A program made the position numbers and the translations under genes. The notes beneath the pieces were generated by a model. The model ran no database searches. It saw only the letters and a list, made by a program, of their open reading frames with translations, and was not told the DNA's origin. Positions 32,480 through 49,717 of a stretch of 64,000 bases of DNA are shown here, in pieces. Numbering within the stretch: position 1 is the stretch's first letter; each line of letters begins with the position of its first letter. Origin of the DNA: Alphaproteobacteria bacterium (GTDB lineage Bacteria > Pseudomonadota > Alphaproteobacteria > Rickettsiales > UBA8987); contig JAUIEX010000002.1 in NCBI GenBank assembly GCA_030429725.1, positions 5,229 to 69,228 of the forward strand. The letters run 5' to 3'.

Positions 32480-33373
32480 CTAACTTGGCTGCACCATCAA
32501 CCATGCCACGGTGGAAGCATCCGCCCCGTTGGTGGAGGTGATGGTGAAGGATGTGCCCACCGAACGCGCGGAAATATAAGGCACCCCCACCGTACCCGAG
32601 GGGCTTTGAATGGTCAGATAAATCCGGCTATCCGCCGCTACGGAAGCATTATTCACCACCGCCGTGCCGGAGGAGAGTGTGGCTGTGCCCATATGGGTGT
32701 TGGTATCTTCCTTCACCTTCAGCGCTCCGTCAACATTCACATCCTGCTTAAAATCCACATTACCCGTATCTTTATCCAGCACGAAAGATTGATAAAACGC
32801 GCTGCCATCGGGTGAAACTTTGAAAGAGAAATTATCTTCTCCAATCAGGCCAAATTCCGCTCTGCCGGAAAAATTATTCTGAAATACAAAACTGGCCGTA
32901 TCCGCCGTATCATCCTTGTTCAGCTTCACCTGCACATCATCCCCGTTATGGCTGAACAGAACGGCCGCACTGGCCACGCTCAGCTTGTTTGTGGCATCCG
33001 CCGTGGTGTTGATGCCCACCAGCGCGGCATTCTGAATGTTCTTCGCGGCAAACACCCATGCAGCCCCATCAAAGGCATAGAGCGCATCCTCATCCTTCAC
33101 CCACACGGCCAGCCCCTCATTGGGCTCTACAAACCGCCATATCTGCTCAAAATAGGCCAGCTGGCCTTCCTTCCCTGCCCAATCATCCGTCGCCGAAGCG
33201 CCCACAATATAAGCATCCCCTTCAGCCGGGCTGCCCGGCGGTGTGGCTAAATCCTTATCCTCCACCCCGCGATTCATCAGTGCGTCAATGCGCGTCAGCG
33301 CTTCATTCACCGTCACTTCCTTCTGCGCCTGGCTTTGCGCCACCAGGGCTAAATTCAAATTGGTTGTTGGCAT
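32480..33373 (-). CDS. DUF2793-like phage tail-fibre protein (GTA-associated)
   Basis: AGGAG RBS, then MPTTNLNLALVAQSQAQKEVTVNEALTRIDAL... (conserved N-terminal fibre-attachment-like region), then a Gly/Ser/Thr-rich beta-type C-terminus. ATG 33373 is internal to ORF 32480..33424. Confidence 0.65.
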   Translation of the reverse strand: MPTTNLNLALVAQSQAQKEVTVNEALTRIDALMNRGVEDKDLATPPGSPAEGDAYIVGASATDDWAGKEGQLAYFEQIWRFVEPNEGLAVWVKDEDALYAFDGAAWVFAAKNIQNAALVGINTTADATNKLSVASAAVLFSHNGDDVQVKLNKDDTADTASFVFQNNFSGRAEFGLIGEDNFSFKVSPDGSAFYQSFVLDKDTGNVDFKQDVNVDGALKVKEDTNTHMGTATLSSGTAVVNNASVAADSRIYLTIQSPSGTVGVPYISARSVGTSFTITSTNGADASTVAWLMVQPS

Positions 33374-33384
33374 GGTTTTCTCCT
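33347..33384. repeat. 38-bp direct repeat, copy 1 (RBS plus codons 1-9 of the fibre gene)
   Basis: GGCTAAATTCAAATTGGTTGTTGGCATGGTTTTCTCCT is identical to 34071..34108. Confidence 0.95.
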
Positions 33385-33426
33385 TATGGTGTTTAATACT
33401 TGGTCGTCTTGTGATAAAATCCACTC

Positions 33427-33714
33427 ATGGAACTGCATGATCTTCACTCCCACCGGGATGCAATCCTTCAGCTGGCGGAACGCTACCATGCTGGAAACGT
33501 GCGCGTTTTTGGCTCCGTTGCACGGGCGGAAGCGAGAGATGGAAGCGATATTGACCTACTGGTTCACTTCCTTCCTGGCGCTTCTCTGATGGATGAATCC
33601 GGTTTACAGCTGGCATTGGAAGACATGCTGAAAAAACCCGTAGATGTGTTAGCAGATGATGCCATTCGTCCGGAATTCAAAGCACGCATCCTCAGTGAAT
33701 CCATTCCACTTTGA
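33427..33714 (+). CDS. mntA: Minimal nucleotidyltransferase antitoxin (MntA-type)
   Basis: 95 aa with VRVFGSVARAEARDGSDIDLLV (a GS...D.D nucleotidyltransferase motif). The stop overlaps the next gene's start (TGATG). Confidence 0.8.
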   Translation: MELHDLHSHRDAILQLAERYHAGNVRVFGSVARAEARDGSDIDLLVHFLPGASLMDESGLQLALEDMLKKPVDVLADDAIRPEFKARILSESIPL

Positions 33715-34046
33715 TGGAGAAGATCAACCCGAATTTCTTGCGCCTGAAAGACATGCTGCAAGCGATTGATGATGCCACTTCTGCCCACACACGCGGGCTG
33801 GATGACCGCCACCTGCTGATGGCAGCCTCCTACGCCATCGCCATCATCGGTGAGGGAGCAGGCAAACTTTCCACCGATTTTACCGCACAGCACTCCGCCA
33901 TTCCATGGCGGCAGATTATCGGCATGCGCCACCGCATCATCCACGATTATGGTAATGTAAGCCGCGCCCGCCTGGAAGAGGCAATTATCAGAGATTTACC
34001 CATTTTGAAGCAAGAGATTGAAGAGATTCTCGCATCTGATTTCTAA
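33711..34046 (+). CDS. hepT: HEPN/DUF86 toxin (HepT-type RNase)
   Basis: 111 aa with the R-x4-H motif in MRHRIIHDYGNV. The likely ATG is at 33714. Paired with the upstream nucleotidyltransferase. Confidence 0.8.
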   Translation: MMEKINPNFLRLKDMLQAIDDATSAHTRGLDDRHLLMAASYAIAIIGEGAGKLSTDFTAQHSAIPWRQIIGMRHRIIHDYGNVSRARLEEAIIRDLPILKQEIEEILASDF

Positions 34047-34070
34047 CTGGTTTTTTAGCTCAGTGAAGCA

Positions 34071-34108
34071 GGCTAAATTCAAATTGGTTGTTGGCATGGT
34101 TTTCTCCT
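34071..34108. repeat. 38-bp direct repeat, copy 2 (orphan RBS plus ATG plus 9 fibre codons)
   Basis: Identical to 33347..33384. On the minus strand it opens a 33-codon ORF (33996..34097) antisense to the 3' end of hepT. Confidence 0.95.
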
Positions 34109-34138
34109 GTTTTGGTGATTAAAAAATTCGTCATTGCC

Positions 34139-34292
34139 TAACTCCCCCTTCACGGGGGAGTCTGAATTTTAAGCATTAGCGCATAAATTCAGGTGGGGGT
34201 CATGTCGCTACATCTGAAGGCTGCAAAGAACCCCCACCGGATCACGCATCGTTTCACTCGCGCGCTCCGACTCCCCCGTGAAGGGGGAGTTA
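34139..34292. mobile_element. MITE-like nested-hairpin repeat, copy A
   Basis: Termini are TAACTCCCCCTTCACGGGGGAGTC (34139..34162) and its reverse complement GACTCCCCCGTGAAGGGGGAGTTA (34269..34292). Internal inverted repeats are TGAATTT/AAATTCA and GGTGGGGG/CCCCCACC. Confidence 0.85.
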
Positions 34293-34334
34293 GAGACTAA
34301 AACAAAACTTACTCATTCCTTAATTTTTACTTGC

Positions 34335-34496: not shown

Positions 34497-34697
34497 ATGA
34501 AACGTATTTGGAACAACCCATTTTTTAGATTTCTAATTTATTTCGTCGGCCTGCAGGCCTTCGGCCTCGGGGCCGTGCGGGTCATTTCTTGGATCGCAGG
34601 CCTAACCCCCGACATGGTCGGGTGGGTCATTTTTTGCTTTATTGCGGGCGGCATCATTGCCCCCATGGCAGTATCATGGGATTTTGATGAAGACTAA
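34497..34697 (+). CDS. Hypothetical 66-aa protein with two transmembrane helices
   Basis: An ATG ORF with two hydrophobic helices (FFRFLIYFVGLQAFGLGAV; VGWVIFCFIAGGIIAPMAV), followed by a long-stem hairpin and a T-run. No family recognised. Confidence 0.4.
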   Translation: MKRIWNNPFFRFLIYFVGLQAFGLGAVRVISWIAGLTPDMVGWVIFCFIAGGIIAPMAVSWDFDED

Positions 34698-34704
34698 TCC
34701 CGCC

Positions 34705-34806
34705 AAACCCTCCCTTCCCATACGGCACCGGGACGCAATCTTGCCGCAGCTTTCAAGCTCGCCGCATGATCGTCCAAACGCCGCAGGGGAAGGGAGGGTT
34801 TTTTTA
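34705..34806 (+). terminator. Long-range hairpin plus T-run after the 66-aa ORF (possible terminator)
   Basis: AAACCCTCCCTTCCC (34705..34719) pairs with GGGAAGGGAGGGTTT (34787..34801) and is followed by TTTTT. The loop is large (about 67 nt). Confidence 0.35.
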
Positions 34807-34844: not shown

Positions 34845-35034
34845 TAAACTCCCCACTTGTGGGGGAGTCGAGGTGCGGCCTGTGAGATAAAATCGAGCGC
34901 CGCAACTCGGTGGGGGCTGCAAACTGCAAACCGCTAACTGCAACCCTCTACTCAACTCTCACCGCTCAATGACCCCCACCGGATCACGCATCGTTTCACT
35001 CGCGCTCTCCGACTCCCCCGTGAAGGGGGAGTTA
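34845..35034. mobile_element. MITE-like nested-hairpin repeat, copy B
   Basis: Left end is TAAACTCCCCACTTGTGGGGGAGTC and right end is GACTCCCCCGTGAAGGGGGAGTTA (35011..35034). The right ~60 nt are nearly identical to copy A. It contains a 7-nt periodic stretch (CTGCAAA CTGCAAA CCGCTAA CTGCAAC...). It ends 8 nt before the g15 stop. Confidence 0.85.
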
Positions 35035-35042
35035 AAGGCCAC

Positions 35043-38000
35043 CTAAACACTCACCTCCGCCGGTCGGCCACGCCCAATGCGCTCGGACATTTGATAAATC
35101 TTCACACTCACGCTGCTTTGCGGGCTGCCAAAATCGCTTGTTTGATCCGCAGCGTCATAGCTAACGGATGGAGTGGAGGCACTCAGCGTGCGAACCACAT
35201 CTTCACCGTCCAGAATGTCGATCTCATAGGCTTCGGAGGCCTCCGAAAGCGGCACGTCCACACCATCCCGCCAGCTGCCGCCATGGCGCGTGCGGCGAAT
35301 CCAGCTGATCGTCAGGTTGCCCGCCCCATCACGCTCCCCCGCCACATGCGCAGGTGCATATGGCTTCAGCGCATTGGCATTGTAAGCAAAGCTCTGCGCG
35401 TTGGTTTCTCCCAGTGTTTCACCAATCGAAACCGCCTTATAGAGCCGCGACAGGCCAATCAGCCCATCCGGCATATTCACCTTACCGATGCGGCTATCCA
35501 GCAGCACGAAATCATCCCCTGCCGCATGGCTTACAGTGGCATGCTCCGTGCCCAGCCGCCCGCGCAGCAAGCCACTTAAGCGATATTCACCCGCACTCAC
35601 CAGAGTTGCAGTGGTAAACTGAATCACCTCCCCGCCCAGCAGTGCCGCATTGGCGCCGTTCAGTAATGCCTCCGTAGAAACACTCTCCAGCGTGCCGTTG
35701 GAAAGCAGCACGGTCACATTATTTGCAACATCCATCACACCCGCCGCGCCATCCGCCAGCGCCGTAATGGCTTTGCCCATCACCGCCCGATTATTATTCA
35801 CCAGCACCTGCCCATAACGCGCACCGCCATCGTCCGAGCGATAGAGAATACTGCCCTGCCAGCCGGATTCCTCCCCGCTAACGGCCACCCGCAGCAAAGC
35901 GTCCTCTGCATCATCGCCGGCCAGCAGCGGCACATCCAGCAGCTTCAACCGCGTGGCGCCCGCCGGCACTTCCGCCTGAGTGCTGCCGCTTGTTTCCGCC
36001 GCCGCGGCGTCACTTTCATAAAGCGCCACATCCTCCGCAATGCCTTTGCAACGAAGGCGCCCACCTTCTTCCAGCGTGGTTTCCATAATGCGAATCGTGT
36101 GGCTTTGGCCGTTGCTTGTCACCGTCACCACATCGGCAGGAGAGATTGCCGCATATTTCGGCGGCAGGATAAACTGATAACGCATCCTCGCCGTCCAGGC
36201 CTGACACAGCGCCACATCCGCCGCCATCTTGCCGCGCTCATCCCCCATCACGATCGGGAAATTGATGATATGTTTTTGATCGCTCGCTACGGATTGCCGC
36301 GACGCACGCTGGGTGCCGATCTGATAATCAAAACCCCGGCTGAGGTAATTCACCTCCACCGCTTTGGGCAGATCGGCCTCCTGCCCGCGTGTGATGGCCA
36401 GATGCACCGCCTTTCCACGCTGTTTGAAGGGCACCAATTCATCCTCGGCAATCGTTACCGCAGACGCATTGCCGCGCGGCAGATAGTCCACCTGCCCGTC
36501 TTCTTCCCGCGCATCAAAAAAATACGCTGCCTGAAGCTGCGCAATGGCACTTCGCGCACTCACCGGCTGTTTCAGCACATAGCCTTCCACCAAATCACTC
36601 AGCTTGGTAACATCCATTTCACCACTATTTAAGCCCGCACGCAGCCCAATATCCTGCACAATGGCGGCAAGGGAAGATAACCCCATTTTACCATTCACCC
36701 AATGCCCGGTTTTCCATAATCCGCCATCGGTCCAGATATTTGTCATTTCCGGCCAGAAGGAAAATGGCCGCGCATCCCATGTCCAGACAAATTTTTGCTC
36801 CACCATGGTAGAGCCTTCCCACGCGGTTTCCGTGGCCTGCAACCCTAAACGCTGCGCAGAATTATCCACCCGCCCGCGTGAAAAGCGCGGAAAGTAGCTC
36901 TCCGAACTGGTCGGGTCATAAAACACATTCGGCTGGTTGGTTGCCCCATCTACGGATGGAAAACCATATTCCGTGAACCAGAATGGCTTGGATTCCGGCA
37001 CCCAGGCAGTGGTGCTGGCATCCGGGTTCACATGCTCATTTTCCCAGAACCATTGCAGATTTTTCCACGCATATTGTGGGCTGATCGCCGCCTGCGTCGT
37101 TCGCGCTTCATCCGTATATACCCAGTCATACCCCTCCCCGCTTGTCCAGCCATCAATGGCTTTTTGCAGGGTGATGCCGCTTTGCGGCTCATCCGTCAGC
37201 GGGAAATAGGCATCAATGCCGATAAAGTCGATATTCGCCGAAGCCCAGAGCGGATCAAGATTATACCAGCCATCATCCGTGTGGTGATATTCGCTCCAAT
37301 CCGCAGCATAGGTCACCTTCGTGCCACTACCCACAATCGCCTTTACACTGGCCGCCAAGCTCACCAGCGCGTCCACCGCCGGGAAGGAATCATCCCCACT
37401 ATCCTGCACGGAAGTTAAGCCCACCAGCTCCGAACCAATGACAAACGCATCCACATTCGAAGCATCTGCCAAGTTCGCATAATGCGTTATAAATTCATTA
37501 TAACCATTTGTTTTTGTAAAGAAATTAGCAACATTACTAACGCTCCCCGTCACCCGGCCGCGCCATGGCTTATTTTCCGTATCCATAAAAAACATCGGGT
37601 ACAGCATCACCTGATAGCCCCGGCTTTTCAGCTCCCCTATCAACCGCGCAACCGAAGCATCCGAAGGCGTGCCGCCATAAACCGGGTTACCATTTTCATC
37701 GAGCGAAATTTGCGGTGCGGAGGCACGATCCCAACTGCCCACGCCCCACTGATCCGGCTCTGTTGTCGCGCCATCTTTATATTCCACATAGGGCTTGATC
37801 GTACAGCCCCCGGCGTCCACATCATCCCCAAACCATGTCACCACAACACTCACCCATTCTAGGTTTGGAAAAGTGGCCTCCAGCTGATCCAGCGACGCCA
37901 GCACATCCGCCTTGCCGCTCACATTATTCTGGTTAATGCGCACCTGCTCACCGCTTTCGAAAAAATCATCGCCAATCTGCTGGCCAATCAGTTTTTTCTG

Positions 38001-38693
38001 CACGTTGGTGTCATACACAAACTCCCCGGAACCGGGAATCATCGTCATCGCCGTAATCTGCTCTTCCAGCGGCGCATCACCACTATTAAGCGCAGATTTA
38101 CGCACCTCAAACGTAAAGTTAGGAATACGATTGCCAAATTGCTCAAGCGGAAAATCCTCAATCACCACATACGCCACCCCGCGATAAGCCGGCACAAAAC
38201 CACTACCAAGCTCCGCCTCCATGGCAGAATCCGGCAATTGATCTTCCGTTCCTTTATACAGGCGATAAACACCTGAATAGTCATTGATATTAATGGTTTT
38301 AGCATCCGCCCACACGCGCACCACCTCGTCAATCTCCCCTTCGCAAATCGCAATGGCCAGCGTCACGCTATAGCTATAGCTGGTCTGGGAAACACTGCGG
38401 CCGCTGCCGCCCTTGCCGCTGCCGGATTCTGTCGTCGTAGCACTTTCCATAATCGGCTTAGACCAGATCACATTGCCCGCCACACGCGCCGTGCCATAAA
38501 GCTGCGGCACCATGCGGCCATAGGTGGAGGTTTGCACCTGCAAATCTTCCAAGCGCGGGCCTTCCACCACCAGCTTCTGCCCGGGCAACACACCCAGCGC
38601 AGTATCAATCTGCGCGCCCAGCTGAATGCCTTGCAGCGCAAGGCCAATATCCCCCGAAGCCGCTCCTGCTGCGCCTAATACAAGTGTAGTCAT
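35043..38693 (-). CDS. GTA g15-type host-specificity / baseplate protein
   Basis: 1216 aa. The N-terminus (PRLEDLQVQTSTYGRMVPQLYGTARVAGNVIWS...SYSYSVTLAIAICEGEI) and the central glycoside-hydrolase-like region are typical of RcGTA ORFg15 homologues. It is in the last structural gene position. Confidence 0.85.
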   Translation of the reverse strand: MTTLVLGAAGAASGDIGLALQGIQLGAQIDTALGVLPGQKLVVEGPRLEDLQVQTSTYGRMVPQLYGTARVAGNVIWSKPIMESATTTESGSGKGGSGRSVSQTSYSYSVTLAIAICEGEIDEVVRVWADAKTININDYSGVYRLYKGTEDQLPDSAMEAELGSGFVPAYRGVAYVVIEDFPLEQFGNRIPNFTFEVRKSALNSGDAPLEEQITAMTMIPGSGEFVYDTNVQKKLIGQQIGDDFFESGEQVRINQNNVSGKADVLASLDQLEATFPNLEWVSVVVTWFGDDVDAGGCTIKPYVEYKDGATTEPDQWGVGSWDRASAPQISLDENGNPVYGGTPSDASVARLIGELKSRGYQVMLYPMFFMDTENKPWRGRVTGSVSNVANFFTKTNGYNEFITHYANLADASNVDAFVIGSELVGLTSVQDSGDDSFPAVDALVSLAASVKAIVGSGTKVTYAADWSEYHHTDDGWYNLDPLWASANIDFIGIDAYFPLTDEPQSGITLQKAIDGWTSGEGYDWVYTDEARTTQAAISPQYAWKNLQWFWENEHVNPDASTTAWVPESKPFWFTEYGFPSVDGATNQPNVFYDPTSSESYFPRFSRGRVDNSAQRLGLQATETAWEGSTMVEQKFVWTWDARPFSFWPEMTNIWTDGGLWKTGHWVNGKMGLSSLAAIVQDIGLRAGLNSGEMDVTKLSDLVEGYVLKQPVSARSAIAQLQAAYFFDAREEDGQVDYLPRGNASAVTIAEDELVPFKQRGKAVHLAITRGQEADLPKAVEVNYLSRGFDYQIGTQRASRQSVASDQKHIINFPIVMGDERGKMAADVALCQAWTARMRYQFILPPKYAAISPADVVTVTSNGQSHTIRIMETTLEEGGRLRCKGIAEDVALYESDAAAAETSGSTQAEVPAGATRLKLLDVPLLAGDDAEDALLRVAVSGEESGWQGSILYRSDDGGARYGQVLVNNNRAVMGKAITALADGAAGVMDVANNVTVLLSNGTLESVSTEALLNGANAALLGGEVIQFTTATLVSAGEYRLSGLLRGRLGTEHATVSHAAGDDFVLLDSRIGKVNMPDGLIGLSRLYKAVSIGETLGETNAQSFAYNANALKPYAPAHVAGERDGAGNLTISWIRRTRHGGSWRDGVDVPLSEASEAYEIDILDGEDVVRTLSASTPSVSYDAADQTSDFGSPQSSVSVKIYQMSERIGRGRPAEVSV

Positions 38694-39090: not shown

Positions 39091-39726
39091 CTAACGAAAT
39101 TCATACACCCCCACCAAGCGCCGCTGCCAGCTTGCATCAAAATGCGTTTCCACCACCTTCCCGGCCGGCAGATAGGCATGGATGAGGCGGATGTTAGGTT
39201 CGTCATTCCCAACTTGATTGGGAATCCAGTCTATTTTTTTATTTCCTGGATCCCGGGTCGGATCCTGATACTGCGCATCAGGGCCGGGGATGACAGCACC
39301 GGGAAAACTTTTCTCACTGCCCACTGCGCACTGCTCACTAAAAACCAAACCAACATGCTGCGGCTGATGACGCATGCGGAACAAGCCAATCCGCACATCA
39401 TTAGTAACTCCCCCCTCGTGGGGGAGTCGGAATCTTTGACTCCGGCGGGGGGGGAAATTATTTCCCTCGTTACTCTTCTCTCTTTCATCTTGAATAAAAT
39501 GCCGCCCCAGCATCATCTGCAAACGCTCGCCATCCGGCTCACGCGGGTAATCCCGCTCATCATAATCTGCCACAAGCCCGCCAGAGGCGGAAGGGAGTTT
39601 TAATGCCCGCGCCACTTCCACAATCAGCCCAATGCAATCCACTCCCACGCCCCTCACCCGCCCCTGATGGTGAAATGGTGTTTCCAGCCAGCTGCGTGCC
39701 TCGGTGATTATTTCTTCATTACTCAT
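39091..39726 (-). CDS. GTA g14-type NlpC/P60 cell-wall peptidase carrying repeat-derived in-frame insertions
   Basis: N-terminus EARSWLETPFHHQGRVRGVGVDCIGLI (catalytic Cys context), then LFRMRHQPQHVGLVF and IHAY...VVE (His contexts). At 211 aa it is longer than the ~150 aa I recall for g14 homologues. The extra segments coincide with repeat DNA. Confidence 0.8.
   Translation of the reverse strand: MSNEEIITEARSWLETPFHHQGRVRGVGVDCIGLIVEVARALKLPSASGGLVADYDERDYPREPDGERLQMMLGRHFIQDEREKSNEGNNFPPRRSQRFRLPHEGGVTNDVRIGLFRMRHQPQHVGLVFSEQCAVGSEKSFPGAVIPGPDAQYQDPTRDPGNKKIDWIPNQVGNDEPNIRLIHAYLPAGKVVETHFDASWQRRLVGVYEFR
39315..39342. repeat. 7-nt periodic array inside the g14 coding sequence
   Basis: CACTGCC CACTGCG CACTGCT CACTAAA, translated on the minus strand as FSEQCAVGSE. 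Confidence 0.6.
39405..39458. mobile_element. MITE-like half element, copy C, in frame inside g14
   Basis: TAACTCCCCCCTCGTGGGGGAGTC followed by GGAATCTTTGACTCCGGCGGGGGGGG matches the reverse complement of the right end of copy D. It is read through as FPPRRSQRFRLPHEGGVT. Confidence 0.8.
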
Positions 39727-39935: not shown

Positions 39936-40778
39936 CTAGCGTGTTCCAGCTGTTTTCAGCATCGCATCCGTGCCCGGAACATGCGGAAAGCCCCTGAAAT
40001 TACTTATATTATTAAACCGCTGACGGCAGGTGGTCAGCGTTTTATCACACCCGCCAATCAGCGAATAGCCATCCCCCACCTCCACGTCATAGGGCATGGG
40101 CAACATCAATGTCAGCTCACCGTTATTAAAATATTTCACCTCCATGCTCAGGCCGTCATTTGCCCCGCCAGTGAAAATTATCTGCCCGTGATTAAACAAA
40201 CCGGCCGTTTCACTGCGTGCTGAATCTGCAAACACCGTGCGGCTGGTCACCGCGGTCACCGTCCCCGTCACCGTATGCGCAGCCAGATTCACCCCGCAGC
40301 GCCCGTCACCAAGCTCAGCGTCGCAGCCGGGGGTAAATAACCGCCCGATAGTGGTATCCAGCTTTTGCATCAATCCGCGCAACTCCGCTGTGAAATGGCC
40401 CTCCCCGGTCTGCACCTCACCAATCCAGCCCGTGCGCAGATTCATCACCCCATCTTCAGGGGATTCCGCATTCATCAAAAAGAGCGAAACTTCCGCATAA
40501 TCGTATTTTCCGGCCAGAATATCGGCCTCCGTAATTGCTTCATCATCCAGAAGCCCCAGAAGTTCCAGCGCATCCACCGCCAGATCATCCCGCCCCTTCA
40601 CCGCAGAGGCATTAAAACCACTGCCAGCCTGATAGGTTACGCTGTCATATTCAATATCCTGATCATGCTCCGTAAAGCCAAGCACGGCACCATCACGCCG
40701 TGTTATTTTCCAGCAGGTGGCCAGGCTGGTCAGCTCGCCACCCAGATGGGTTTGTAAATTTGCAGAAACTGTTTTCAT
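39936..40778 (-). CDS. GTA g13-type tail hub protein (DUF2163 / BR0599 family)
   Basis: MKTVSANLQTHLGGELTSLATCWKITRRDGAVLGFTEHDQDIEYDSVTYQAGSGF..., 280 aa, with a C-terminal Cys-containing region. Confidence 0.85.
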   Translation of the reverse strand: MKTVSANLQTHLGGELTSLATCWKITRRDGAVLGFTEHDQDIEYDSVTYQAGSGFNASAVKGRDDLAVDALELLGLLDDEAITEADILAGKYDYAEVSLFLMNAESPEDGVMNLRTGWIGEVQTGEGHFTAELRGLMQKLDTTIGRLFTPGCDAELGDGRCGVNLAAHTVTGTVTAVTSRTVFADSARSETAGLFNHGQIIFTGGANDGLSMEVKYFNNGELTLMLPMPYDVEVGDGYSLIGGCDKTLTTCRQRFNNISNFRGFPHVPGTDAMLKTAGTR

Positions 40779-40821: not shown

Positions 40822-40898
40822 GTTCCCGTAGCTCAGCAGGATAGAGCAACAGATTCCTAATCTGTAGGTCGGAGGTTCGAATCCTCTCGGGAACACCA
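40822..40898 (+). tRNA. tRNA-Arg (anticodon CCT)
   Basis: Manual cloverleaf. Acceptor stem GTTCCCG/CGGGAAC, D stem GCTC/GAGC, anticodon stem ACAGA/TCTGT with loop TTCCTAA, 5-nt variable loop, T arm GGAGG-TTCGAAT-CCTCT, discriminator A, encoded CCA. Confidence 0.9.
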
Positions 40899-41013
40899 TT
40901 CATTCTTTTTAAGGGTTAAGCAACAGCGCCTTAAAAAGGATGGATAATTTTCATTTGAGGATGAGAACAATGTTCGAAACCGAGGGCAACAGCCCGCAGG
41001 TTCGGCGAAGCCA

Positions 41014-41032
41014 ATCCTCTCGGGAACACCAA
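41014..41032 (+). repeat. Duplicate of the tRNA-Arg 3' end (att-like scar)
   Basis: AATCCTCTCGGGAACACCA is identical to 40880..40898. It is preceded by AGGTTCG (40999..41005), which resembles the T arm. Confidence 0.85.
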
Positions 41033-41037
41033 CAGCC

Positions 41038-41640
41038 CTAAACCCGCACTTCCACCAGCGGGATTGGGTTCACGGCAAAGGCGCCATAATCCTGCAGGCT
41101 GACGGAAAGCTGATCCACATCAAACCGCACCGGCACATCAAATTCAAAATCCGCCTGAATTGCCACCCCGCCACCCGGCGCACTATCAAACGTCACCTCG
41201 CCTGTGGCGGCATCCACAGTAACACCACTGCTTTGCAGCACGGAATCCAAATAGATATTCACCGTGCTATCCACCGGCTTGGTGATGTTGCGTGTTTCAG
41301 TGCGCGCACCACTTTGATAGGTCTTCACCAGCTGGAACACGGTGGTTGCACCATCGCCCGCGCCAATCACCTGCCCGGTTGCCTGATAATCCGCATGATC
41401 CTTGAAACGAAAGCCATAGGCACGCCCTTTGCGGGCACGAAAAAACGCAATCAGCGTATCCAGCTCCGCTTGTGTTTTCACCCCACGCGCCACATTATAA
41501 CGCGCGCGCGCCGCACTCCAATTCACATTGCGCTGTTCATACCCATTGGCAAGCATCACAATATCCGTGGCATATTCCGGCCCCCCGGTGCTGCCATAGG
41601 CAATGGCATCGGGAAAGCGCACTTCATCAAAAGCGGCCAT
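41038..41640 (-). CDS. GTA g12-type distal tail protein (DUF2460 family)
   Basis: MAAFDEVRFPDAIAYGSTGGPEYATDIVMLANGYEQRNVNWSAARARYNV...LIAFFRARKGRAYGFRFKD, 200 aa. Confidence 0.85.
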   Translation of the reverse strand: MAAFDEVRFPDAIAYGSTGGPEYATDIVMLANGYEQRNVNWSAARARYNVARGVKTQAELDTLIAFFRARKGRAYGFRFKDHADYQATGQVIGAGDGATTVFQLVKTYQSGARTETRNITKPVDSTVNIYLDSVLQSSGVTVDAATGEVTFDSAPGGGVAIQADFEFDVPVRFDVDQLSVSLQDYGAFAVNPIPLVEVRV

Positions 41641-42724: not shown

Positions 42725-43135
42725 TTAAGCAGCGTTATAAGTAACATTTCCGGAGGATTGCAGCACCACGCGCACCTCCTCCGCACCGTTGATTGCCCCC
42801 TGCCGCTGATAATCCCTGATCATCGCCGGAAGCACCATGTCATCCCCATTACCAAAGCTCACTTTTACATTGGCCGCCGCGCCATTAAAGGCCATTGCCC
42901 GCAGGCTTTCTTCCACTGAAGCATCCGTAAAAAGCCCTTCCAGCGTCAACTGCACCTGCGCAATGCCACTTTCACCCAGCTCCTTCTGCCATGCACCGCT
43001 GGTGACATACACGGCCGGCACCGGGCGGCGCTGAATGCGAAGCTCTGTCACGCGCACACCCGGCAATAACGTAAACACTTCCGGATCCGCACCATCACCC
43101 AATGCACATGTTAAATTTTTACCCGCCTGAATCAT
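42725..43135 (-). CDS. GTA g9-type major tail protein (TP901-1 family)
   Basis: 136 aa. ...VTSGAWQKELGESGIAQVQLTLEGLFTDASVEESLRAMAF... matches the RcGTA g9 pattern. Position fits. Confidence 0.8.
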   Translation of the reverse strand: MIQAGKNLTCALGDGADPEVFTLLPGVRVTELRIQRRPVPAVYVTSGAWQKELGESGIAQVQLTLEGLFTDASVEESLRAMAFNGAAANVKVSFGNGDDMVLPAMIRDYQRQGAINGAEEVRVVLQSSGNVTYNAA

Positions 43136-43143
43136 AGCTCAAC

Positions 43144-43548
43144 CTATTGTTTTTGAATACGAAATCTTATTAAACACTCAGCCTGATAGCCAATCACATC
43201 GCGGTGCACTTCCGCCTCAACGCCCTCCAGCCAGTGGTCAATCACCGCGTGGTTAGATAACGCTAAATTCGAGGCCTCCAACACAGCCACCGCCCTTTCG
43301 ATAATCTCAAGCACCGTCAGGCGTGATGGCACATCGCTATGCGCGCGCAAAACAACATCCAGACGCGAAATATCCACGTTCAATGCCGGTTCACTCACAG
43401 ATTCAGTCATGTTAATTAAGAGATAGGGCGATTCAGCGCCTTGCGGTGCATGGTCATAAATCCCGCTAACCAGCGCCGCCAATGTTGCATCCGCCGTCAG
43501 CTCACTATAAATCGCCGCTTGAAGCTCTTTCCAGCCCAAAGCACTCAT
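43144..43548 (-). CDS. GTA g8-type tail completion protein (DUF3168)
   Basis: 134 aa, LTADATLAALVSGIYDHAPQGAESPYLLI. ATGA overlap with the upstream gene. Confidence 0.75.
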   Translation of the reverse strand: MSALGWKELQAAIYSELTADATLAALVSGIYDHAPQGAESPYLLINMTESVSEPALNVDISRLDVVLRAHSDVPSRLTVLEIIERAVAVLEASNLALSNHAVIDHWLEGVEAEVHRDVIGYQAECLIRFRIQKQ

Positions 43549-43898
43549 AACGCCACCCCACTTTCAGCAATAATGTCCAACTGCTCTTTGCGCCCCGTTG
43601 GATCAGACAAACTCCGAATATTGAGCATTTCATCCTGATAACAGATACTCATAGATTGAGTTAGATTATCCTTATATCGTATTGTTATTTTATATTTTTT
43701 CTTATTATTAATTTTACCATTTTCCATAATCTCTTTACTGGCCTGCGCAGGCGAATATGGCAGAACTTCCGCCCAGACCGTGCCAATATTCACCCAACTC
43801 ACCGTAAAACCTCCGGCAAAATCGGATGTGCGAACAGGATTACGAAAACTAATGCGTGATGTCAGACGGGATGCCAGAATATCTTTTTTCATCACCAC
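43545..43898 (-). CDS. GTA g7-type head-tail adaptor / head-closure protein
   Basis: 117 aa, RISFRNPVRTSDFAGGFTVSWVNIGTVWAEVLPYS... typical of SPP1 gp16 / HK97-type adaptors. Confidence 0.8.
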   Translation of the reverse strand: MVMKKDILASRLTSRISFRNPVRTSDFAGGFTVSWVNIGTVWAEVLPYSPAQASKEIMENGKINNKKKYKITIRYKDNLTQSMSICYQDEMLNIRSLSDPTGRKEQLDIIAESGVAL

Positions 43899-43899
43899 C

Positions 43900-44442
43900 T
43901 CACAAATAAATCACGCGGTAAGGGTCATATTGCATCAGCGTATCGGGCGGCAGATTTGTCTGGCCACGATGCTCAAACATATAGGCCACATGCGCCAGCA
44001 AGCCCTGTTGAATATCATAGGGAACCTGGCTGGCATCGCCATAACCCGCCACATATTCCACCTCCACCATGTGCGCCACGGGGGAAATATCGAACCGCAA
44101 TGCGGCATTCCCGGCCGAAAGCGTATAAGCACTGCCGGATAATGCCTGTGAAGTGCCGTCACGTGTGGTCAGCGTCACCGCCATAATTGATTGCACGGGC
44201 CCACGCATCAATTGCACCCGGGCGGGCGCAAAATCATCAAAACCCATTTTCCAGCGCTGCGTAATCAGCGAACGCCGCATGAATTTCTCCGCTGCCAGCC
44301 GCGCTGCGCGAATCATCTGCAGCAAGGTGATATCCTCATCCTGCTCATCAATTTTTAGGTATAATTTTGTTTCTGCCAAACTGAGTGGCTCCGTTGACGG
44401 AGCAAGAGTTTGGGTTAAATGCGGCATGCGTGATGTCAGCAT
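43900..44442 (-). CDS. GTA g6-type head-tail connector (gp6-like)
   Basis: 180 aa, LSLAETKLYLKIDEQDEDITLLQMIRAARLAAEKFMRRSLITQ... is a connector-family N-terminus. Confidence 0.8.
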   Translation of the reverse strand: MLTSRMPHLTQTLAPSTEPLSLAETKLYLKIDEQDEDITLLQMIRAARLAAEKFMRRSLITQRWKMGFDDFAPARVQLMRGPVQSIMAVTLTTRDGTSQALSGSAYTLSAGNAALRFDISPVAHMVEVEYVAGYGDASQVPYDIQQGLLAHVAYMFEHRGQTNLPPDTLMQYDPYRVIYL

Positions 44443-44501: not shown

Positions 44502-44670
44502 TAACTCCCCCTTCACGGGGGAGTCTGAATTTCGAGCGTGAGCGAAGAAATTCAGGTGGTGGTTTCTGCCGATCGAAGGCAGAAAACAGAGGACTGACGA
44601 GCTAATTTCTGACTTCTGACTAACCCCCACCGGAATCAGAGATTCCGACTCCCCCGTAAAGGGGGAGTTA
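44502..44670. mobile_element. MITE-like nested-hairpin repeat, copy D
   Basis: Left end TAACTCCCCCTTCACGGGGGAGTC (44502..44525), right end GACTCCCCCGTAAAGGGGGAGTTA (44647..44670). Internal pairs are TGAATTT/AAATTCA and TTTCTGCC/GGCAGAAA. Confidence 0.85.
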
Positions 44671-45169: not shown

Positions 45170-45381
45170 TAATTCCCCCCTGAATGCCCCGAAGCGCGAA
45201 GCGCGTGGGGCGATTCAAAATGTGGGGGAGTCGCAGAGCCGCTTGCGTAGCGCGGCGAAGCGTGGGGGGGGCATTTTACAAAAAGATTGCTCAGCAAAAT
45301 AATCAAGGCCGTGTGTTCCTTGAACACCCCCCACGACTCACACCTTCGGTGCTCGTCTGCTCCCCCTCAAGGGGGGAGCTA
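45170..45381. mobile_element. MITE-like repeat, copy E (subfamily 2, with a nested insertion in its left hairpin)
   Basis: TAATTCCCCCC [TGAATGCCCCGAAGCGCGAAGCGCGTGGGGCGATTCAAAATG] TGGGGGAGTCGCAGAGCCG... ...GCTCCCCCTCAAGGGGGGAGCTA. It is collinear with copy F apart from the bracketed insertion. Confidence 0.8.
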
Positions 45382-45393
45382 TTTTTACGCAAC

Positions 45394-46584
45394 CTAAGAA
45401 GCCAATTTCAGCAGTTTGATGGCCTCAAAGTTCACCACATCACCGCCCACACGTTTGGTGCTATAGAACTTCACGAACGGTTTTTCAGTGTACGGATCAC
45501 GCAGGATGCGAACACCCGCACGGTCAACAATCTGATAGGCACGGCTGAAATCACCCACCGCCACGGAAAGTGTGTCCGTATCCGGCGTTGGCATATCCGC
45601 CGCCTGAAGCACAGGAACGCCCATCAGCGTATCCGGCGTGCCCGTCACCAGACCCGGATTCCACAGATACTGATTCGTGGTCGCTTCTTTCAGCAACCGC
45701 GCCTGCTGCACGGCAGAACGGCTCATCAGGAAGGTGGCGCGGGTGGCATATTCCTCTTTCAGTGCATAGAAAATCTGCACCAGACCATCGGCTGTCACCT
45801 GCCCGTCCGTGCCGGAGTCGATCTGTTCGATCTGCCCCCAGCCTGTGCCGGCATCATAGCTTAAGATGCCGCGCGGCTTGCCCACTCCGTCCCCGGAAAT
45901 AAACGCCGTGTTTTCCTTGCGGGTAAACACATCCGTCAGCTTGCCGGAAAGCCAGCCTTCAATATCCACGCTCGCATCATCAATCAGCTTTTGTGTTGCT
46001 TTGGGTTGAGCGCGGAGTTCATGCACAGGGATGATCTTTTTATTCACCTGCGGTGTGGTGGTATCGGAAATGCTGTCTGCCTCCGCATACCAGCCCGCGC
46101 CGGCCTCATCCTTATCCACAATCACTTCCAGCGAATCGGAGGAAATCGTCTCCACCGCCGCCAGTTGACGCATAGGGGAAGATTCAAACACCGTCTTAGC
46201 AATGGTTTGTGCCATGGTTGGCGTCACCAGATAGCCGCCATCCGGGTCGGAAGCCGCAGAAAGCGCCTTCTTCTCAAGGTAGGAAAGTTCTTCCTCCACA
46301 CCTTTGCGCAGATAGTTACAAAAGGCGGTCTTATGATCGCGCACATCAGGGCTGGCAATGGTAGCACCCCCCATCTCCGGCCGGCTGATGGCCGTTTCCA
46401 GCGTATGCATCCGGCTCTTTTGCTCATCCAGCGCGTTGGAAATGCGCCCCAAATGCTCTGTTGTCAGCGCGTCGGCATTGCCTTTGCGCTCAATTTCCTG
46501 CAAGCGGCGATCATTGATCGACTTAAACTGCTCCCAGGTGTTGCCAAGCGTTTCCATACGCTCCGTTAATTCACGTAAACTCAT
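45394..46584 (-). CDS. GTA g5-type major capsid protein (HK97 fold)
   Basis: 396 aa with an N-terminal coiled-coil delta-like region, then an HK97-family body (...GGYLVTPTMAQTIAK..., ...NQYLWNPGLVTGTPDTLMGVPV...). Confidence 0.9.
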   Translation of the reverse strand: MSLRELTERMETLGNTWEQFKSINDRRLQEIERKGNADALTTEHLGRISNALDEQKSRMHTLETAISRPEMGGATIASPDVRDHKTAFCNYLRKGVEEELSYLEKKALSAASDPDGGYLVTPTMAQTIAKTVFESSPMRQLAAVETISSDSLEVIVDKDEAGAGWYAEADSISDTTTPQVNKKIIPVHELRAQPKATQKLIDDASVDIEGWLSGKLTDVFTRKENTAFISGDGVGKPRGILSYDAGTGWGQIEQIDSGTDGQVTADGLVQIFYALKEEYATRATFLMSRSAVQQARLLKEATTNQYLWNPGLVTGTPDTLMGVPVLQAADMPTPDTDTLSVAVGDFSRAYQIVDRAGVRILRDPYTEKPFVKFYSTKRVGGDVVNFEAIKLLKLAS

Positions 46585-46671: not shown

Positions 46672-46828
46672 TAACTCCCCCCTCGAGGGGGAGTCGCAGA
46701 GCCGTCTACGTAGCACGGCGATGCGTGGGGGGGCCGCCTGAATACAACTATAACTGAATGACCCCCCACGACTCCGCGTCGCTGCATGCGCAGCTTGCTT
46801 CGTCCGCTCCCCCTCAAGGGGGGAGCTA
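46672..46828. mobile_element. MITE-like repeat, copy F (subfamily 2)
   Basis: Left end TAACTCCCCCCTCGAGGGGGAGTC (46672..46695), right end GCTCCCCCTCAAGGGGGGAGCTA (46806..46828). Its last 3 nt are the protease stop codon. Confidence 0.85.
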
Positions 46829-47383
46829 GTAGTGAAGCGCCCGCTCCGCTTTTTCCACGGCCCGTAGCAACCGTTTCAGCATCAGCGGGGAAATCTCCTC
46901 CGGCAATTCGGCCTTCTCCTCACGCTTCACACTGGTCACCGTTGCCAATTCATTGGCGGGGAAAGTGACCAGGGAAACTTCCCACAAATCCGCCTGCAAA
47001 ATCTTCCGCACGCCGGTTTCCGGATTCACCTCCGTCTGCTTGGCGGTATAGCCAATGCTTAACCCATCCAGCGCGCCGGATTGCAGCAGGCTGTGCGCCT
47101 CCCGCGCCCGCGCCACATCCAGCAGCAGCTGCCCCTCCACATAAAGCCCGCGCCTGTCCTCACGGATGGTGGTCAACACGCCGATAGGCTCCTCCGGCTT
47201 ATGCTGCCACAGCAGCTTGATATCCGCCGGCTTCTGCGCCAGCAAACTCTCACGGAATGCCCCGCGCATCACAACATCCTTCTGCCGATCCGTCACCTCA
47301 AACACGCTGGCATAGCCGGAGAAAAACCCGCTCTCCTTCACATCCTCCAGCATCAAACTGCTTGCTAACTGTTTCTTTTGCAT
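46826..47383 (-). CDS. GTA g4-type prohead protease (HK97 family)
   Basis: 185 aa, GFFSGYASVFEVTDRQKDVVMRGAFRESL...LLWQHKPEEPIGV... Confidence 0.88.
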   Translation of the reverse strand: MQKKQLASSLMLEDVKESGFFSGYASVFEVTDRQKDVVMRGAFRESLLAQKPADIKLLWQHKPEEPIGVLTTIREDRRGLYVEGQLLLDVARAREAHSLLQSGALDGLSIGYTAKQTEVNPETGVRKILQADLWEVSLVTFPANELATVTSVKREEKAELPEEISPLMLKRLLRAVEKAERALHY

Positions 47384-47397
47384 GATTTCTCCTATTT

Positions 47398-47530
47398 CAA
47401 CTCCCCCTTCATGGGGGAATATGCAGTAAAAAATTATTCCCCCCTGGTGGGGGAATCGACATCTATGATGTCGATGGGGGGCACCCTCACCGGAATCAAA
47501 GATTCCGACTCTCCCATCAAGGGAGAGTCA
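47398..47530. mobile_element. MITE-like repeat, copy G (composite/diverged)
   Basis: CAACTCCCCCTTCATGGGGGAAT..., ATTCCCCCCTGGTGGGGGAATCGAC/GTCGATGGGGGG..., CCGGAATCAAAGATTCCGACTCTCCCATCAAGGGAGAGTCA. Confidence 0.7.
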
Positions 47531-47710: not shown

Positions 47711-48976
47711 CTACTCCCCATCAACCCCCGCCAGCTTCCGTTTCTCGTCCTGTGTCAGGAAATCCGCCTCATTCAGCCGCTTCCACAGCTTTTCCCGGCG
47801 CAGCCCAAGCGCGTGAATGCCATCCACATCATAACTCAGTTTCAGCGCATGCCCTTCCCTTTGCGGGAACATCGGCACCAGCCAGCCATTCAGCGCCGCC
47901 GCGAAATGATCCAGCATCGGCAGCACAGTCTGCTCCCACAGCGCCAGCCGCGCTTCCGCTAAATTGCTATAGGTATTATCCCCGGGAATGCCCAGCAGCT
48001 GCGGCGGCACCCCAAAAGCCAGCGCAATGTCGCGCGCGGCGGAATGCTTCGCCTCCATAAAATCCATATCTTTCGGCGAAAGGCTCATCTCCTGCCATTC
48101 CAGCCCGCCTTCCAGCAGCAGCGGCCTTCCTGCATTGGCAGCACCTGAAAATTGCTCCTGCATTTCCGCTTTCAGGCGGTCAAACTGCTCATCGGAAAGG
48201 TTGCCACTGCCCTCCCCCTTCACCACCAGCGCGCCGGATGGCTTTGCGCCATTCTGTAATAAAGCCTGATTCCACTGCGCCGCCTGATTATGCTGGTCAA
48301 TGCTATAAGCCGCCGCTTCCACCGGGGAAAGCCCATGCCAGTCATCCGTCGGGTGGAAGGTTTTTAGATGCAATATCTGCGACCTGCCCGTAATCGCATC
48401 CACCGGATAGCGCCTGGTCACACCATCCACCGTATAATCATAGGCCGCCGGCAACCCGCCCCGTCCGGCAATCACCTGCACCCTGTCCGGGCGCAGCGTA
48501 TAAATCTCACGCGGCGAATCCGCACCCACCGCCAGCAAAAACACATTGCCCGCCAGCAAACGCTGCACCGCCATATTCTCTATAAGCTCCGTACCCTGAC
48601 AGCGCGGGGATGGGCACTCCATCAGGCTTAAAAGCGGATGCTGATTCACCGCAACCGCACCCTCCGGCCTTTGCATGGAAAGCTTCCATGGCACACTGGC
48701 CGCGGCCTCCGCCACCATGCGGATGGCGCGGTGTGCAATCACATTCCGGCGATAAGCCTCCTCCGCAAAGCGGGCATAATCCCGCCCCATCCACACTGCC
48801 TTGCCAGGTTGCGTAAAATAGGTTGAGGTTGCAGATGCCAGCGGCAGCGCATAGTCCGGCGCAAATTGTTTCGCCTCGTTGTTGCTGCCATTGGCCGCAT
48901 CATTACCGGTAAGAAGGTTAAATAGTCCCTGCATGCGGGACGGCTTCGCCCCGCGTTGTTTCTGCGCTTTGCTCAT
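47711..48976 (-). CDS. GTA g3-type portal protein (HK97 family)
   Basis: 421 aa, ...RNVIAHRAIRMVAEAAASVPWKL...LLAGNVFLLAV...HPTDDWHGLSPVEAAAYSIDQHN... portal-family sequence. Confidence 0.9.
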   Translation of the reverse strand: MSKAQKQRGAKPSRMQGLFNLLTGNDAANGSNNEAKQFAPDYALPLASATSTYFTQPGKAVWMGRDYARFAEEAYRRNVIAHRAIRMVAEAAASVPWKLSMQRPEGAVAVNQHPLLSLMECPSPRCQGTELIENMAVQRLLAGNVFLLAVGADSPREIYTLRPDRVQVIAGRGGLPAAYDYTVDGVTRRYPVDAITGRSQILHLKTFHPTDDWHGLSPVEAAAYSIDQHNQAAQWNQALLQNGAKPSGALVVKGEGSGNLSDEQFDRLKAEMQEQFSGAANAGRPLLLEGGLEWQEMSLSPKDMDFMEAKHSAARDIALAFGVPPQLLGIPGDNTYSNLAEARLALWEQTVLPMLDHFAAALNGWLVPMFPQREGHALKLSYDVDGIHALGLRREKLWKRLNEADFLTQDEKRKLAGVDGE

Positions 48977-49122: not shown

Positions 49123-49404
49123 TTAATTGTTGAATAACTCAGCATGAGAACCCATTCGGATAAACAGAATAACGTTATTATCTTCATCACGTTCATAAAT
49201 GAGGAGCCAATCGGGCTCAATATGCAAATCACGGCATCCACGAAAATTTCCCGTCAATGCATGATCCTTATACCGCTCAGGCAGTGGAATATTATGGTAT
49301 AAAAACTCGTTAACATCCTTAAATTTCTGTATATCTTTGCCCTGTTTTTGGCAACGTTTTACATCACGCTTAAATTTTGCAGTCCATTTAATGGCATAGG
49401 GCAT
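49123..49404 (-). CDS. yafQ: YafQ-family type II toxin (ribosome-dependent mRNA interferase)
   Basis: MPYAIKWTAKFKRDVKRCQKQGKDI...LPERYKDHALTGNFRGCRDLHIEPDWLLIYE... aligns closely with E. coli YafQ as I recall it (YKDH.L.G...RD.H.EPDW.LIY). ATG 49404 is internal to ORF 49123..49410. Confidence 0.85.
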   Translation of the reverse strand: MPYAIKWTAKFKRDVKRCQKQGKDIQKFKDVNEFLYHNIPLPERYKDHALTGNFRGCRDLHIEPDWLLIYERDEDNNVILFIRMGSHAELFNN

Positions 49405-49456: not shown

Positions 49457-49717
49457 CTAAATCCCCAGATCGTTATAGAATTCCTCCAATGATTCGGCGC
49501 GGTGAACCCGCCCCTCCTCAGCATCTTTCATGGCGGCCAGCGTCGTTTCATTTGGAATTTTGGCAACCGGCTGAAAGGGTAGACCACCCATCGTGACGGA
49601 TTGATGCAAAAACATCCGCACCGCATCCTGCGTGGAAAGCCCCATGGAAGCAAACAGCGCATCCGCCGCGCGCTTAATTTCTCCGTCCACACGGGTTTGT
49701 ATGAGTTCTCTGGCCAT
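49457..49717 (-). CDS. dinJ: DinJ/RelB-family antitoxin
   Basis: MARELIQTRVDGEIKRAADALFASMGLSTQDAVRMFL...LPF...ending YNDLGI. It parallels E. coli DinJ, including the C-terminal LGI. A GGAGG RBS precedes ATG 49717. Confidence 0.85.
   Translation of the reverse strand: MARELIQTRVDGEIKRAADALFASMGLSTQDAVRMFLHQSVTMGGLPFQPVAKIPNETTLAAMKDAEEGRVHRAESLEEFYNDLGI

Follow-up and report, generated by a model that had tools for sequence, protein, structure and literature searches.

The DNA window analysed here (the whole stretch of 64 kb) contains, to judge from its genes, a cluster of the type described for the gene transfer agent (GTA) of Rhodobacter capsulatus (RcGTA), extending from terminase to g15 and a tail-fibre gene, in an uncultured Rickettsiales-like alphaproteobacterium. 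Lodged between g15 and the fibre gene is a two-gene toxin-antitoxin (TA) operon of the MntA/HepT kind, bounded on both sides by the same 38-bp sequence, which comprises the Shine-Dalgarno (SD) sequence, the start codon and the following codons, up to the ninth, of the fibre gene. We read this exact repeat, whose edges coincide with those of the insert, as the apparent footprint of a single insertion event that duplicated its target; arrival of the TA pair by such an event, through a mechanism that we infer, is the most economical reading of the sequence. The features concerned are listed below in window coordinates.

32480..33373, minus strand: tail-fibre gene, Rcc00171-like, 297 aa; Pfam DUF2793 N-terminal domain (1.6e-30) and K1-lyase_C (2.5e-26)
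33347..33384, minus strand: direct-repeat copy 1, an exact 38-mer holding the SD AGGAG, a 6-nt spacer, ATG and codons 2-9 of the working fibre gene
33393..33420, plus strand: promoter-like site TTAATA-16-TAAAAT with extended TG, from a sigma-70-like consensus scan, ending 6 nt before the mntA ATG
33427..33714, plus strand: mntA-like minimal nucleotidyltransferase (putative antitoxin), 95 aa; NTP_transf_2 (3.2e-10) and Polbeta (3.6e-10), both above Pfam cut-offs
33714..34046, plus strand: hepT-like HEPN RNase (putative toxin), 110 aa; PF01934 HepT-like (5.9e-17)
33996..34097, minus strand: 33-codon open reading frame (ORF), MPTTNLNLACFT..., opened by copy 2 as a 'decoy' start; from the ORF list
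34071..34108, minus strand: direct-repeat copy 2, with the same SD, ATG and nine codons, joined to the original upstream DNA (copy A of a palindromic element resembling a miniature inverted-repeat transposable element, MITE, on the g15 side)
35043..38693, minus strand: g15, 1216 aa; Pfam GTA_TIM, Phage-tail_3 and Rcc01698_C

The duplicated fibre-gene start and the pair it encloses

The sequence GGCTAAATTCAAATTGGTTGTTGGCATGGTTTTCTCCT is present exactly twice, at 33347-33384 and 34071-34108, with 0 mismatches between the copies and no third copy in the 64-kb window at 3 or fewer mismatches; in 100 dinucleotide-preserving shuffles the number of 38-mer matches was 0, the chance expectation also being 0. 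These counts bear out the perfect repeat described in the original prediction, an earlier reading of the same DNA. On the minus strand the 38-mer is composed of AGGAG, AAAACC and ATG CCA ACA ACC AAT TTG AAT TTA GCC (MPTTNLNLA), so that one boundary falls on the first base of the SD and the other on a codon boundary, that of codon 9; both edges of the repeat are also the two edges of the foreign DNA. No core with dyad symmetry is recognisable in the 38-mer. The earlier proposal that weaker similarity continues for about 20 nt beyond each copy did not hold: on the SD-proximal side the resemblance amounts to TGGTG(T/A)TTAA only, which is marginal (anchored p ~0.02, unanchored local p ~0.2), and on the other side nothing was found above chance level (alignment p ~0.64). 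We accordingly rejected extended homology beyond the repeat as not significant, and dismissed a 12-nt match, ATTCGTCATTGC (32404/34126), as being at chance level for a 4-kb region.

Copy 1 includes the fibre ATG (33373-33371, minus strand), whose Met aligns with Met1 of 13 homologues in full-length alignment, and the N-termini of these homologues are strongly conserved (M..T.NL..LV.QSQAQKEVT). Together with the Pfam assignment, this alignment identifies copy 1 as the real 5' end of a DUF2793-like fibre gene, as had been claimed, and the gene is intact despite the insertion. The DUF2793 protein Rcc00171 is the tail fibre of RcGTA and is required for gene transfer (PMC5026251). The best fibre homologue is 56% identical among 5.8 billion proteins, with a partial match of 61% in GTDB representative genomes, and the best homologues (55-61% identity) derive from metagenome-assembled genomes labelled 'Rickettsiales bacterium' and 'Alphaproteobacteria bacterium'.

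Between the two copies, the 686 bp at 33385-34070 contain only two genes, both on the plus strand and opposite to the fibre gene, with 42 nt left free ahead of mntA and 24 nt behind hepT. The mntA product scores 40.7 bits with NTP_transf_2 (cut-off 21) and shows the catalytic motif GS...DIDLLV, GSVARAEARDGSDIDLLV in translation; the hepT product scores 61.9 bits with PF01934 (cut-off 23.5) and carries the Rx4HxY motif as RHRIIHDY. Among 8 HepT relatives RHRIIH, Y and G are invariant, the D of RHRIIHDY being G in one. The mntA stop codon (33712-33714) overlaps the hepT ATG (33714-33716) in TGATG, in the coupled order with the antitoxin first. The Pfam matches and motifs agree with the original description of a nucleotidyltransferase/HEPN pair as the sole content of the interval, on the opposite strand and with TGATG coupling.

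By sequence, the pair is assigned to the HepT/MntA, type VII-like TA systems at the superfamily/Pfam level only, both members having missed the NCBIfam equivalog cut-offs (MntA_antitoxin, 42.3 versus 60 bits; HepT_toxin, 23.8 versus 60 bits). In the HepT/MntA system of Shewanella oneidensis (SO_3166/SO_3165), MntA AMPylates and neutralises the HepT RNase (PMC7641770), and by analogy the MntA protein encoded here would do the same to its partner. The two systems share the order of a nucleotidyltransferase followed by a HEPN RNase, the stop/start overlap, and the GS..DxD and Rx4HxY motifs (PMC7641770); the present pair differs in falling below the equivalog cut-offs and in the shortness of its proteins (95 and 110 aa). 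The best HepT homologue is 58-59% identical, and the closest HepT/MntA relatives (49-59% identical) occur in loci L083 (4714-5336), L084 (2707-3336) and L085 (2709-3333), with the same mntA-hepT order, co-directional with their neighbours and wedged among them with gaps of 0-7 nt. Those neighbours are housekeeping genes rather than GTA clusters, in arrangements such as serS / mntA-hepT / surE and aroQ / mntA-hepT / ABC ATPase.

Copy 2 opens the 33-codon ORF, which is present in the ORF list and overlaps the 3' end of hepT by 51 nt in antisense; the ORF has no entry in the protein collection. The earlier characterisation of a 'decoy start' antisense to hepT is correct as a description of the sequence, any functional effect being putative. 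The promoter-like site ahead of mntA is the sole consensus match in 2.9 kb, where 2.6 would be expected, and is weak; a terminator-like signal is formed by the left hairpin of MITE A and a T-run (34141-34171, plus strand), 95 nt past the hepT stop, with an RNA fold z of -8.4 for the MITE A hairpin region. Should transcription from the g15 side still reach the fibre gene, the transcript must cross two strong hairpins and would expose the second SD and ATG, from which a 33-aa peptide would be made; such read-through from g15 to the fibre gene would run antisense to the whole TA operon.

The two repeat copies are identical at 38/38 positions, versus 88-89% identity among neighbouring copies of the MITE family, a contrast that suggests a comparatively recent event, with the reservation that 38 nt is a short ruler and that copy 1 is under selection.

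The g15-fibre junction in related loci

That the TA pair is an insertion follows from the organisation of relatives, in which g15 and the fibre gene are normally adjacent. Among 48 related loci carrying both genes, the gap between them was 50 nt or less in 25, 51-300 nt in seven, and 350-2200 nt in the remaining 16; at other junctions of the module, gaps exceeding 300 nt occurred in 0/23 loci for g12-g13, 5/33 for g13-g14 and 3/35 for g14-g15. The claim that the TA insertion separated the fibre gene from g15 is supported to this extent by the relatives, and falls short in that the TA unit accounts for only 724 nt of the 1669 nt lying between g15 and the fibre ATG.

The 16 loci with long gaps (L011, L014, L022, L025, L027, L030, L035, L038, L039, L047, L048, L054, L056, L059, L064 and L072) bear assorted cargo, including bPH_3 with SHOCT, a 473-aa protein, BrnT with a partner, MazE with PIN, ArsR with an LMWPc arsenate-reductase-like protein, Cation_efflux proteins, and an APH_6_hur/APH(6)-type kinase; in 13 of these loci the cargo is encoded on the strand that does not carry the GTA genes. 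Gene order thus marks the g15-fibre junction as a recurrent hotspot of cargo insertion, of which the MntA/HepT pair is one more example, antisense to the GTA genes like most of the others. Such cargo is found in roughly one third of the related loci that were sampled, which would be of interest for the evolution of GTAs and for the question of where TA and defence genes settle.

Cargo of this kind between conserved structural genes is familiar from the morons of HK97- and lambda-type phages and from the accessory hotspots of P2 and P4. The likeness extends to autonomous cargo set between genes that are adjacent in relatives, to the variety of the cargo, TA pairs included, and to its usually separate transcription; the differences are that the host element here is a GTA cluster and that only the present instance shows a 38-bp duplication of the start of the downstream gene. 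We tried and rejected the idea that a flanking duplication is a habit of the hotspot or of the TA subfamily (0/16 cargo loci; 0/3 HepT-relative loci); the duplication of the 38-bp gene start is a footprint of an unusual kind, seen only once.

Origin of the duplication

In the mechanism that we tentatively prefer, the MntA/HepT operon would have inserted as self-contained, 'moron'-like cargo between g15 and the DUF2793 fibre gene, in one event that duplicated the 38-bp target (SD, ATG and nine codons), kept the fibre start and left the old start behind as the 33-codon ORF. The incoming DNA would have been a circular or ends-in intermediate bearing one 38-bp block, integrated by a single crossover inside the block it shared with the chromosome; to this mechanism we give a probability of roughly 0.4. 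The crossover may have been RecA- or short-homology-dependent, of Campbell type, or carried out by a site-specific recombinase acting in trans, as for integrase-less att-flanked elements; by either route the edges of identity would be the edges of the insert and the gene start would be regenerated. This mechanism accounts for the functional character of the block, which from the SD to codon 9 makes up a unit that regenerates the gene. Through the resulting pair of repeats the cassette could leave precisely, as a 724-bp circle, a loss that a stable toxin of the TA pair would penalise. The circular intermediate, the recency of the event, excision, addiction and any regulatory effect are all points that we infer.

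Both routes have recognised counterparts. Integrase-less att-flanked elements (cis-mobilizable elements, CIMEs) and gene-end islands that carry a replacement copy of their target are likewise flanked by direct repeats of tens of bp identical to the end of the target gene, reconstitute that gene and lack a recombinase of their own. The att-type pattern is present here, in that the same core repeat stands at either end, overlaps the end of a gene and restores that gene; the departures are an insert of only 686 bp, a cassette and scanned ORFs without an integrase, a 38-mer without a dyad core, and no siblings found. Campbell-type integration of a circle through short homology leaves the homology on both sides and the target intact, and is reversible. 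The outcome seen here is exactly as predicted, although the model gives no account of how a natural 724-bp circle came to carry 38 bp from the start of a chromosomal gene, and no such circle was observed. The second TA pair (RelB/YafQ) in the same cluster was counted in favour of the cargo interpretation, as was a contig of an independent k=31 assembly (Logan, ERR3428548) whose end falls exactly on the outer edge of the repeat.

Several other families of elements were considered and set aside. No terminal inverted repeats join the cassette ends (33385-33430 versus 34040-34070), the cassette encodes the TA pair only and no transposase or other recombinase, and no recombinase was found among the window ORFs scanned with Pfam (the GTA cluster, its neighbours and some flanking ORFs, most ORFs at 1-26 kb lying outside the scan). 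A transposon of the DDE or insertion-sequence type was discarded, there being no terminal inverted repeats, no transposase in the cassette and no sibling copies in the window, in plasmids or phages, or in IMG/VR. Of the original proposal of a target-duplicating event, the footprint of one insertion was retained, and a 'long target-site duplication' was left with neither transposase nor terminal inverted repeat to account for it. An integron cassette was also rejected: no attC site (R''/L''...L'/R' with RYYYAAC...GTTRRRY) was found downstream of the ORF, since neither the flank distal to hepT nor the ends of the MITE, inspected by eye, match the R' consensus; no attC-like match was obtained among Rfam families; and the palindromes belong to a dispersed MITE-like family with flanking TA.

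A number of observations weigh against insertion by a shared block. No flanking repeat longer than 14 nt was found in the 16 cargo-bearing relatives, nor any long repeat around the TA pair in the three HepT-relative loci (L083-L085), so that nothing points to a mechanism that recurs. Neither IMG/VR nor the JGI metagenomes contain the exact 38-mer, blastn of 33300-34200 retrieved nothing from plasmids or phages, and the HepT profile retrieved nothing from IMG/VR. No second copy of the cassette occurs in the 64-kb window, which, with part of its ORFs scanned, defines the genomic scope of the search for recombinases and a donor copy. The original prediction had called for an empty site in related strains; neither an empty site nor a circular junction turned up in any collection searched, nor did any close relative (fibre 56-61%, HepT 58-59% identity), the nearest ones, at 56-61%, being too distant to show insertion polymorphism. 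The composition of the TA pair resembles that of the host, foreign composition having been tried as an indicator and not found, and the promoter and terminator calls for the operon are consensus matches only. Finally, a circle already carrying the fibre start needs an origin, which the single-crossover model does not supply.

Among alternatives, a staggered break, with opposite-strand nicks 38 nt apart made by some enzyme or by damage, could have captured the 686-bp fragment, the overhangs then being filled in to give the 38-bp duplication. Such an event would account for the coincidence of repeat edges and insert edges and would require no prior homology on the incoming DNA. Target duplications of transposons are usually 2-15 bp, however, and 38 nt is far longer; the lack of terminal inverted repeats and of a transposase in the cassette or the scanned window ORFs, the presence of other cargo at the hotspot without duplications, and an edge placed exactly on the first SD base, which would have to be coincidence or survivorship, all make this origin unlikely. 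Slightly less likely again is microhomology-mediated template switching, akin to fork stalling and template switching or microhomology-mediated break-induced replication (FoSTeS/MMBIR), in which a nascent strand jumped to a TA locus, copied 686 nt and then resumed on the original template 38 nt short of where it had left, so copying the block a second time. It would yield an insertion with flanking duplication in the absence of a recombinase or defined element ends, and would suit a cassette trimmed nearly to the operon, but the TA pair must have existed elsewhere in that cell as a donor copy, and the 64-kb window holds none. Copy 2 might instead be the stump of an older fibre gene, left either by tandem DUF2793 genes with identical starts or by an incoming segment of TA pair plus fibre gene that replaced the resident gene through one homologous and one illegitimate crossover, with nothing of the old gene surviving beyond codon 9. 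The high conservation of DUF2793 N-termini, the horizontal exchange of fibre genes (PMC5026251) and a second partial DUF2793 match just downstream in the relative L050 speak for such a history; we nevertheless think it improbable, since at least two events are needed, identity must end exactly at the insert edge on both sides, and 38/38 identity with unrelated sequence right beyond it is not what diverged genes would be expected to show.

The arrangement could also have arisen in assembly, as an artefact or chimera in which the path through the chromosome took in DNA that shares the 38-mer, such as a distinct 724-bp circle or the cassette of another strain. The DNA comes from a 78-kb metagenome-assembled contig from an uncultured organism, and MntA and HepT are recorded only from this NCBI contig, the fibre protein, g15 and six other proteins of the region (protease, capsid, portal, g13, the weak connector-like ORF and a HEAT protein) being found in Logan as well, fibre and g15 at 100% identity in two Logan read sets. 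The Logan contig L001 (ERR3428548, k=31), which carries the identical fibre gene, has its position 1 at window 33384, the outer edge of the repeat; there, the independent k=31 graph has either a branch or an end. A second contig, L002, ends at window 34976, having entered an exact 34-nt MITE repeat by 30 nt, the behaviour expected of a k=31 unitig. By the same rule a strict unitig that met two integrated copies of the 38-mer should have ended after 30 nt of it, whereas L001 spans all 38 nt to 33384, which two integrated copies in a strict k=31 graph do not predict. Judged from this contrast between L001 and L002, the ERR3428548 population may lack the same two-copy arrangement, or may differ just upstream of the SD.

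Against an artefact, a 38-nt repeat is shorter than normal reads and the larger assembler k values, so both junctions should be read-supported; the composition of the TA pair matches the host; and a graph branch at the exact repeat edge in an independent read set means that the 38-mer truly has alternative neighbours. We rejected the absence of the TA pair from Logan as evidence of a missing cassette, since the control proteins g12, g14 and a 136-aa protein (at 44720) are likewise recorded only from NCBI, which makes that absence uninformative; the Logan contigs carrying the protease measured 1.8 and 5 kb, against an expected ~600 bp. An assembly origin seems to us about as improbable as the stump of an older gene.

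More speculative, and very improbable on present evidence, is a broader version of the single-crossover mechanism, in which the 724-bp unit would be a recombinase-less, excisable mini-cassette whose 'attachment site' mimics the conserved DUF2793 start (SD and nine codons). It could then enter GTA or phage fibre loci by short homology or by site-specific recombination in trans, always regenerating the fibre start, with the toxin punishing excision, and would be a single visible instance of TA, defence and resistance genes moving more widely, in a manner not yet described, through the g15-fibre junction of GTA clusters. The elements found here (a HepT/MntA-type pair and moron-like cargo) are ordinary, and the recurrent cargo site at the g15-fibre junction is the most useful by-product of the analysis. 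The duplication shows how an insertion can spare the gene downstream, and predicts reversible excision; its general importance is limited, as a single instance with no comparative support and no enzyme identified.

The rest of the gap and the GTA cluster

The part of the g15-fibre gap outside the TA unit is taken up by two MITE-like palindromic copies and a 550-nt stretch with an orphan ORF:

34139..34293, no strand assigned: MITE-like palindromic element, copy A; repeat/hairpin analysis and RNA fold
34497..34697, plus strand: orphan 66-codon ORF, predicted membrane peptide and doubtful gene, between MITE copies A and B
34847..35034, no strand assigned: MITE-like palindromic element, copy B, abutting the g15 stop

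The orphan ORF gave no Pfam or NCBIfam match and is absent from the protein collection; a single weak match, with no credible homologue among 1.84 billion representatives, led us to reject it as a real gene. It is followed by an inverted repeat with 31-nt arms (hairpin 34705-34801). An 83-nt, 88% direct repeat (34230-34312 / 34972-35054), considered as a possible second target duplication, proved to be two copies of the MITE family and was rejected as such.

Members of this MITE-like family are ~155-195 nt in length, with ends of the form TAACTCCCCC-loop-GGGGGAGTC ... GACTCCCCC-loop-GGGGGAGTTA and TA flanks, and are located at 34139-34293, 34847-35034, ~39380-39460, 44502-44670, ~45200-45382, 46672-46828 and 47398-47530. 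The MITE hairpin is matched 13 times in the 64-kb window, against 0.15 expected by chance, and every match lies between genes of the 13-kb GTA cluster. One palindromic element (hairpin 39407-39427) lies in frame in the NlpC/P60-like g14 ORF, which is still open and encodes the peptide ...RFRLPHEGGVTN... at this position, an arrangement that recalls the Rickettsia palindromic elements.

An ordered head-tail module ending in g12-g15 (DUF2460, Gp84_N/BR0599, GTA_TIM/Phage-tail_3/Rcc01698_C) is present. Besides g15 and the fibre gene, it comprises:

49838-51262, minus strand: terminase (Pfam)
47711-48976, minus strand: portal (Pfam)
46826-47383, minus strand: prohead protease (Pfam)
45394-46584, minus strand: capsid (Pfam)
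43900-44442, minus strand: head-tail connector ORF, a weak match just under the Pfam cut-off
43545-43898, minus strand: head completion protein (Pfam)
43144-43548, minus strand: tail completion protein (Pfam)
42725-43135, minus strand: tail tube protein (Pfam)
41038-41640, minus strand: g12, DUF2460 (Pfam)
39936-40778, minus strand: g13 (Pfam)
39091-39726, minus strand: g14, NlpC/P60-like; no Pfam match, the likeness being read from a GVDC motif

The cluster shares with RcGTA the terminase, portal, protease, capsid, tail tube, DUF2460 g12, g13, g15 and DUF2793 fibre (PMC5026251, PMC10883770). It differs from RcGTA in the position of the fibre gene, which here follows g15, as in phage RDJLphi1 and most of the relatives sampled: in RDJLphi1 the DUF2793 gene stands directly after homologues of g12-g15 (PMC5026251, PMC10883770), and R. 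capsulatus expresses its fibre gene from a separate locus (PMC5026251). Also unlike RcGTA, the cluster is full of MITE-like elements and holds one tRNA gene and two TA pairs.

In the usual view, a GTA cluster is a conserved operon that has been domesticated; this one accommodates a tRNA gene and seven MITE-like elements in addition to its two TA pairs. The second TA pair, composed of RelB (49457-49717) and YafQ (49123-49404; YafQ_toxin, 2.9e-33), both on the minus strand, lies on the GTA strand between terminase and portal, with a GC content of 0.38 and no flanking repeats, and recurs in an independent Logan assembly from sample SRR24442552 (L086, 667-1261). A tRNA-Arg(CCT) gene (40822-40898, plus strand) is wedged between g13 and g12 on the strand opposite to theirs, and a 30-nt, 83% copy of its 3' end occurs 104 nt downstream, at 41002-41031; by sequence, the two look like the att-type footprint of a former integrative element in the cluster. 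Some 400 nt upstream of the terminase lies a gene (51660-53417, minus strand) for a 585-aa RTX-repeat protein with 12 HemolysinCabind matches and Peptidase_M10_C.

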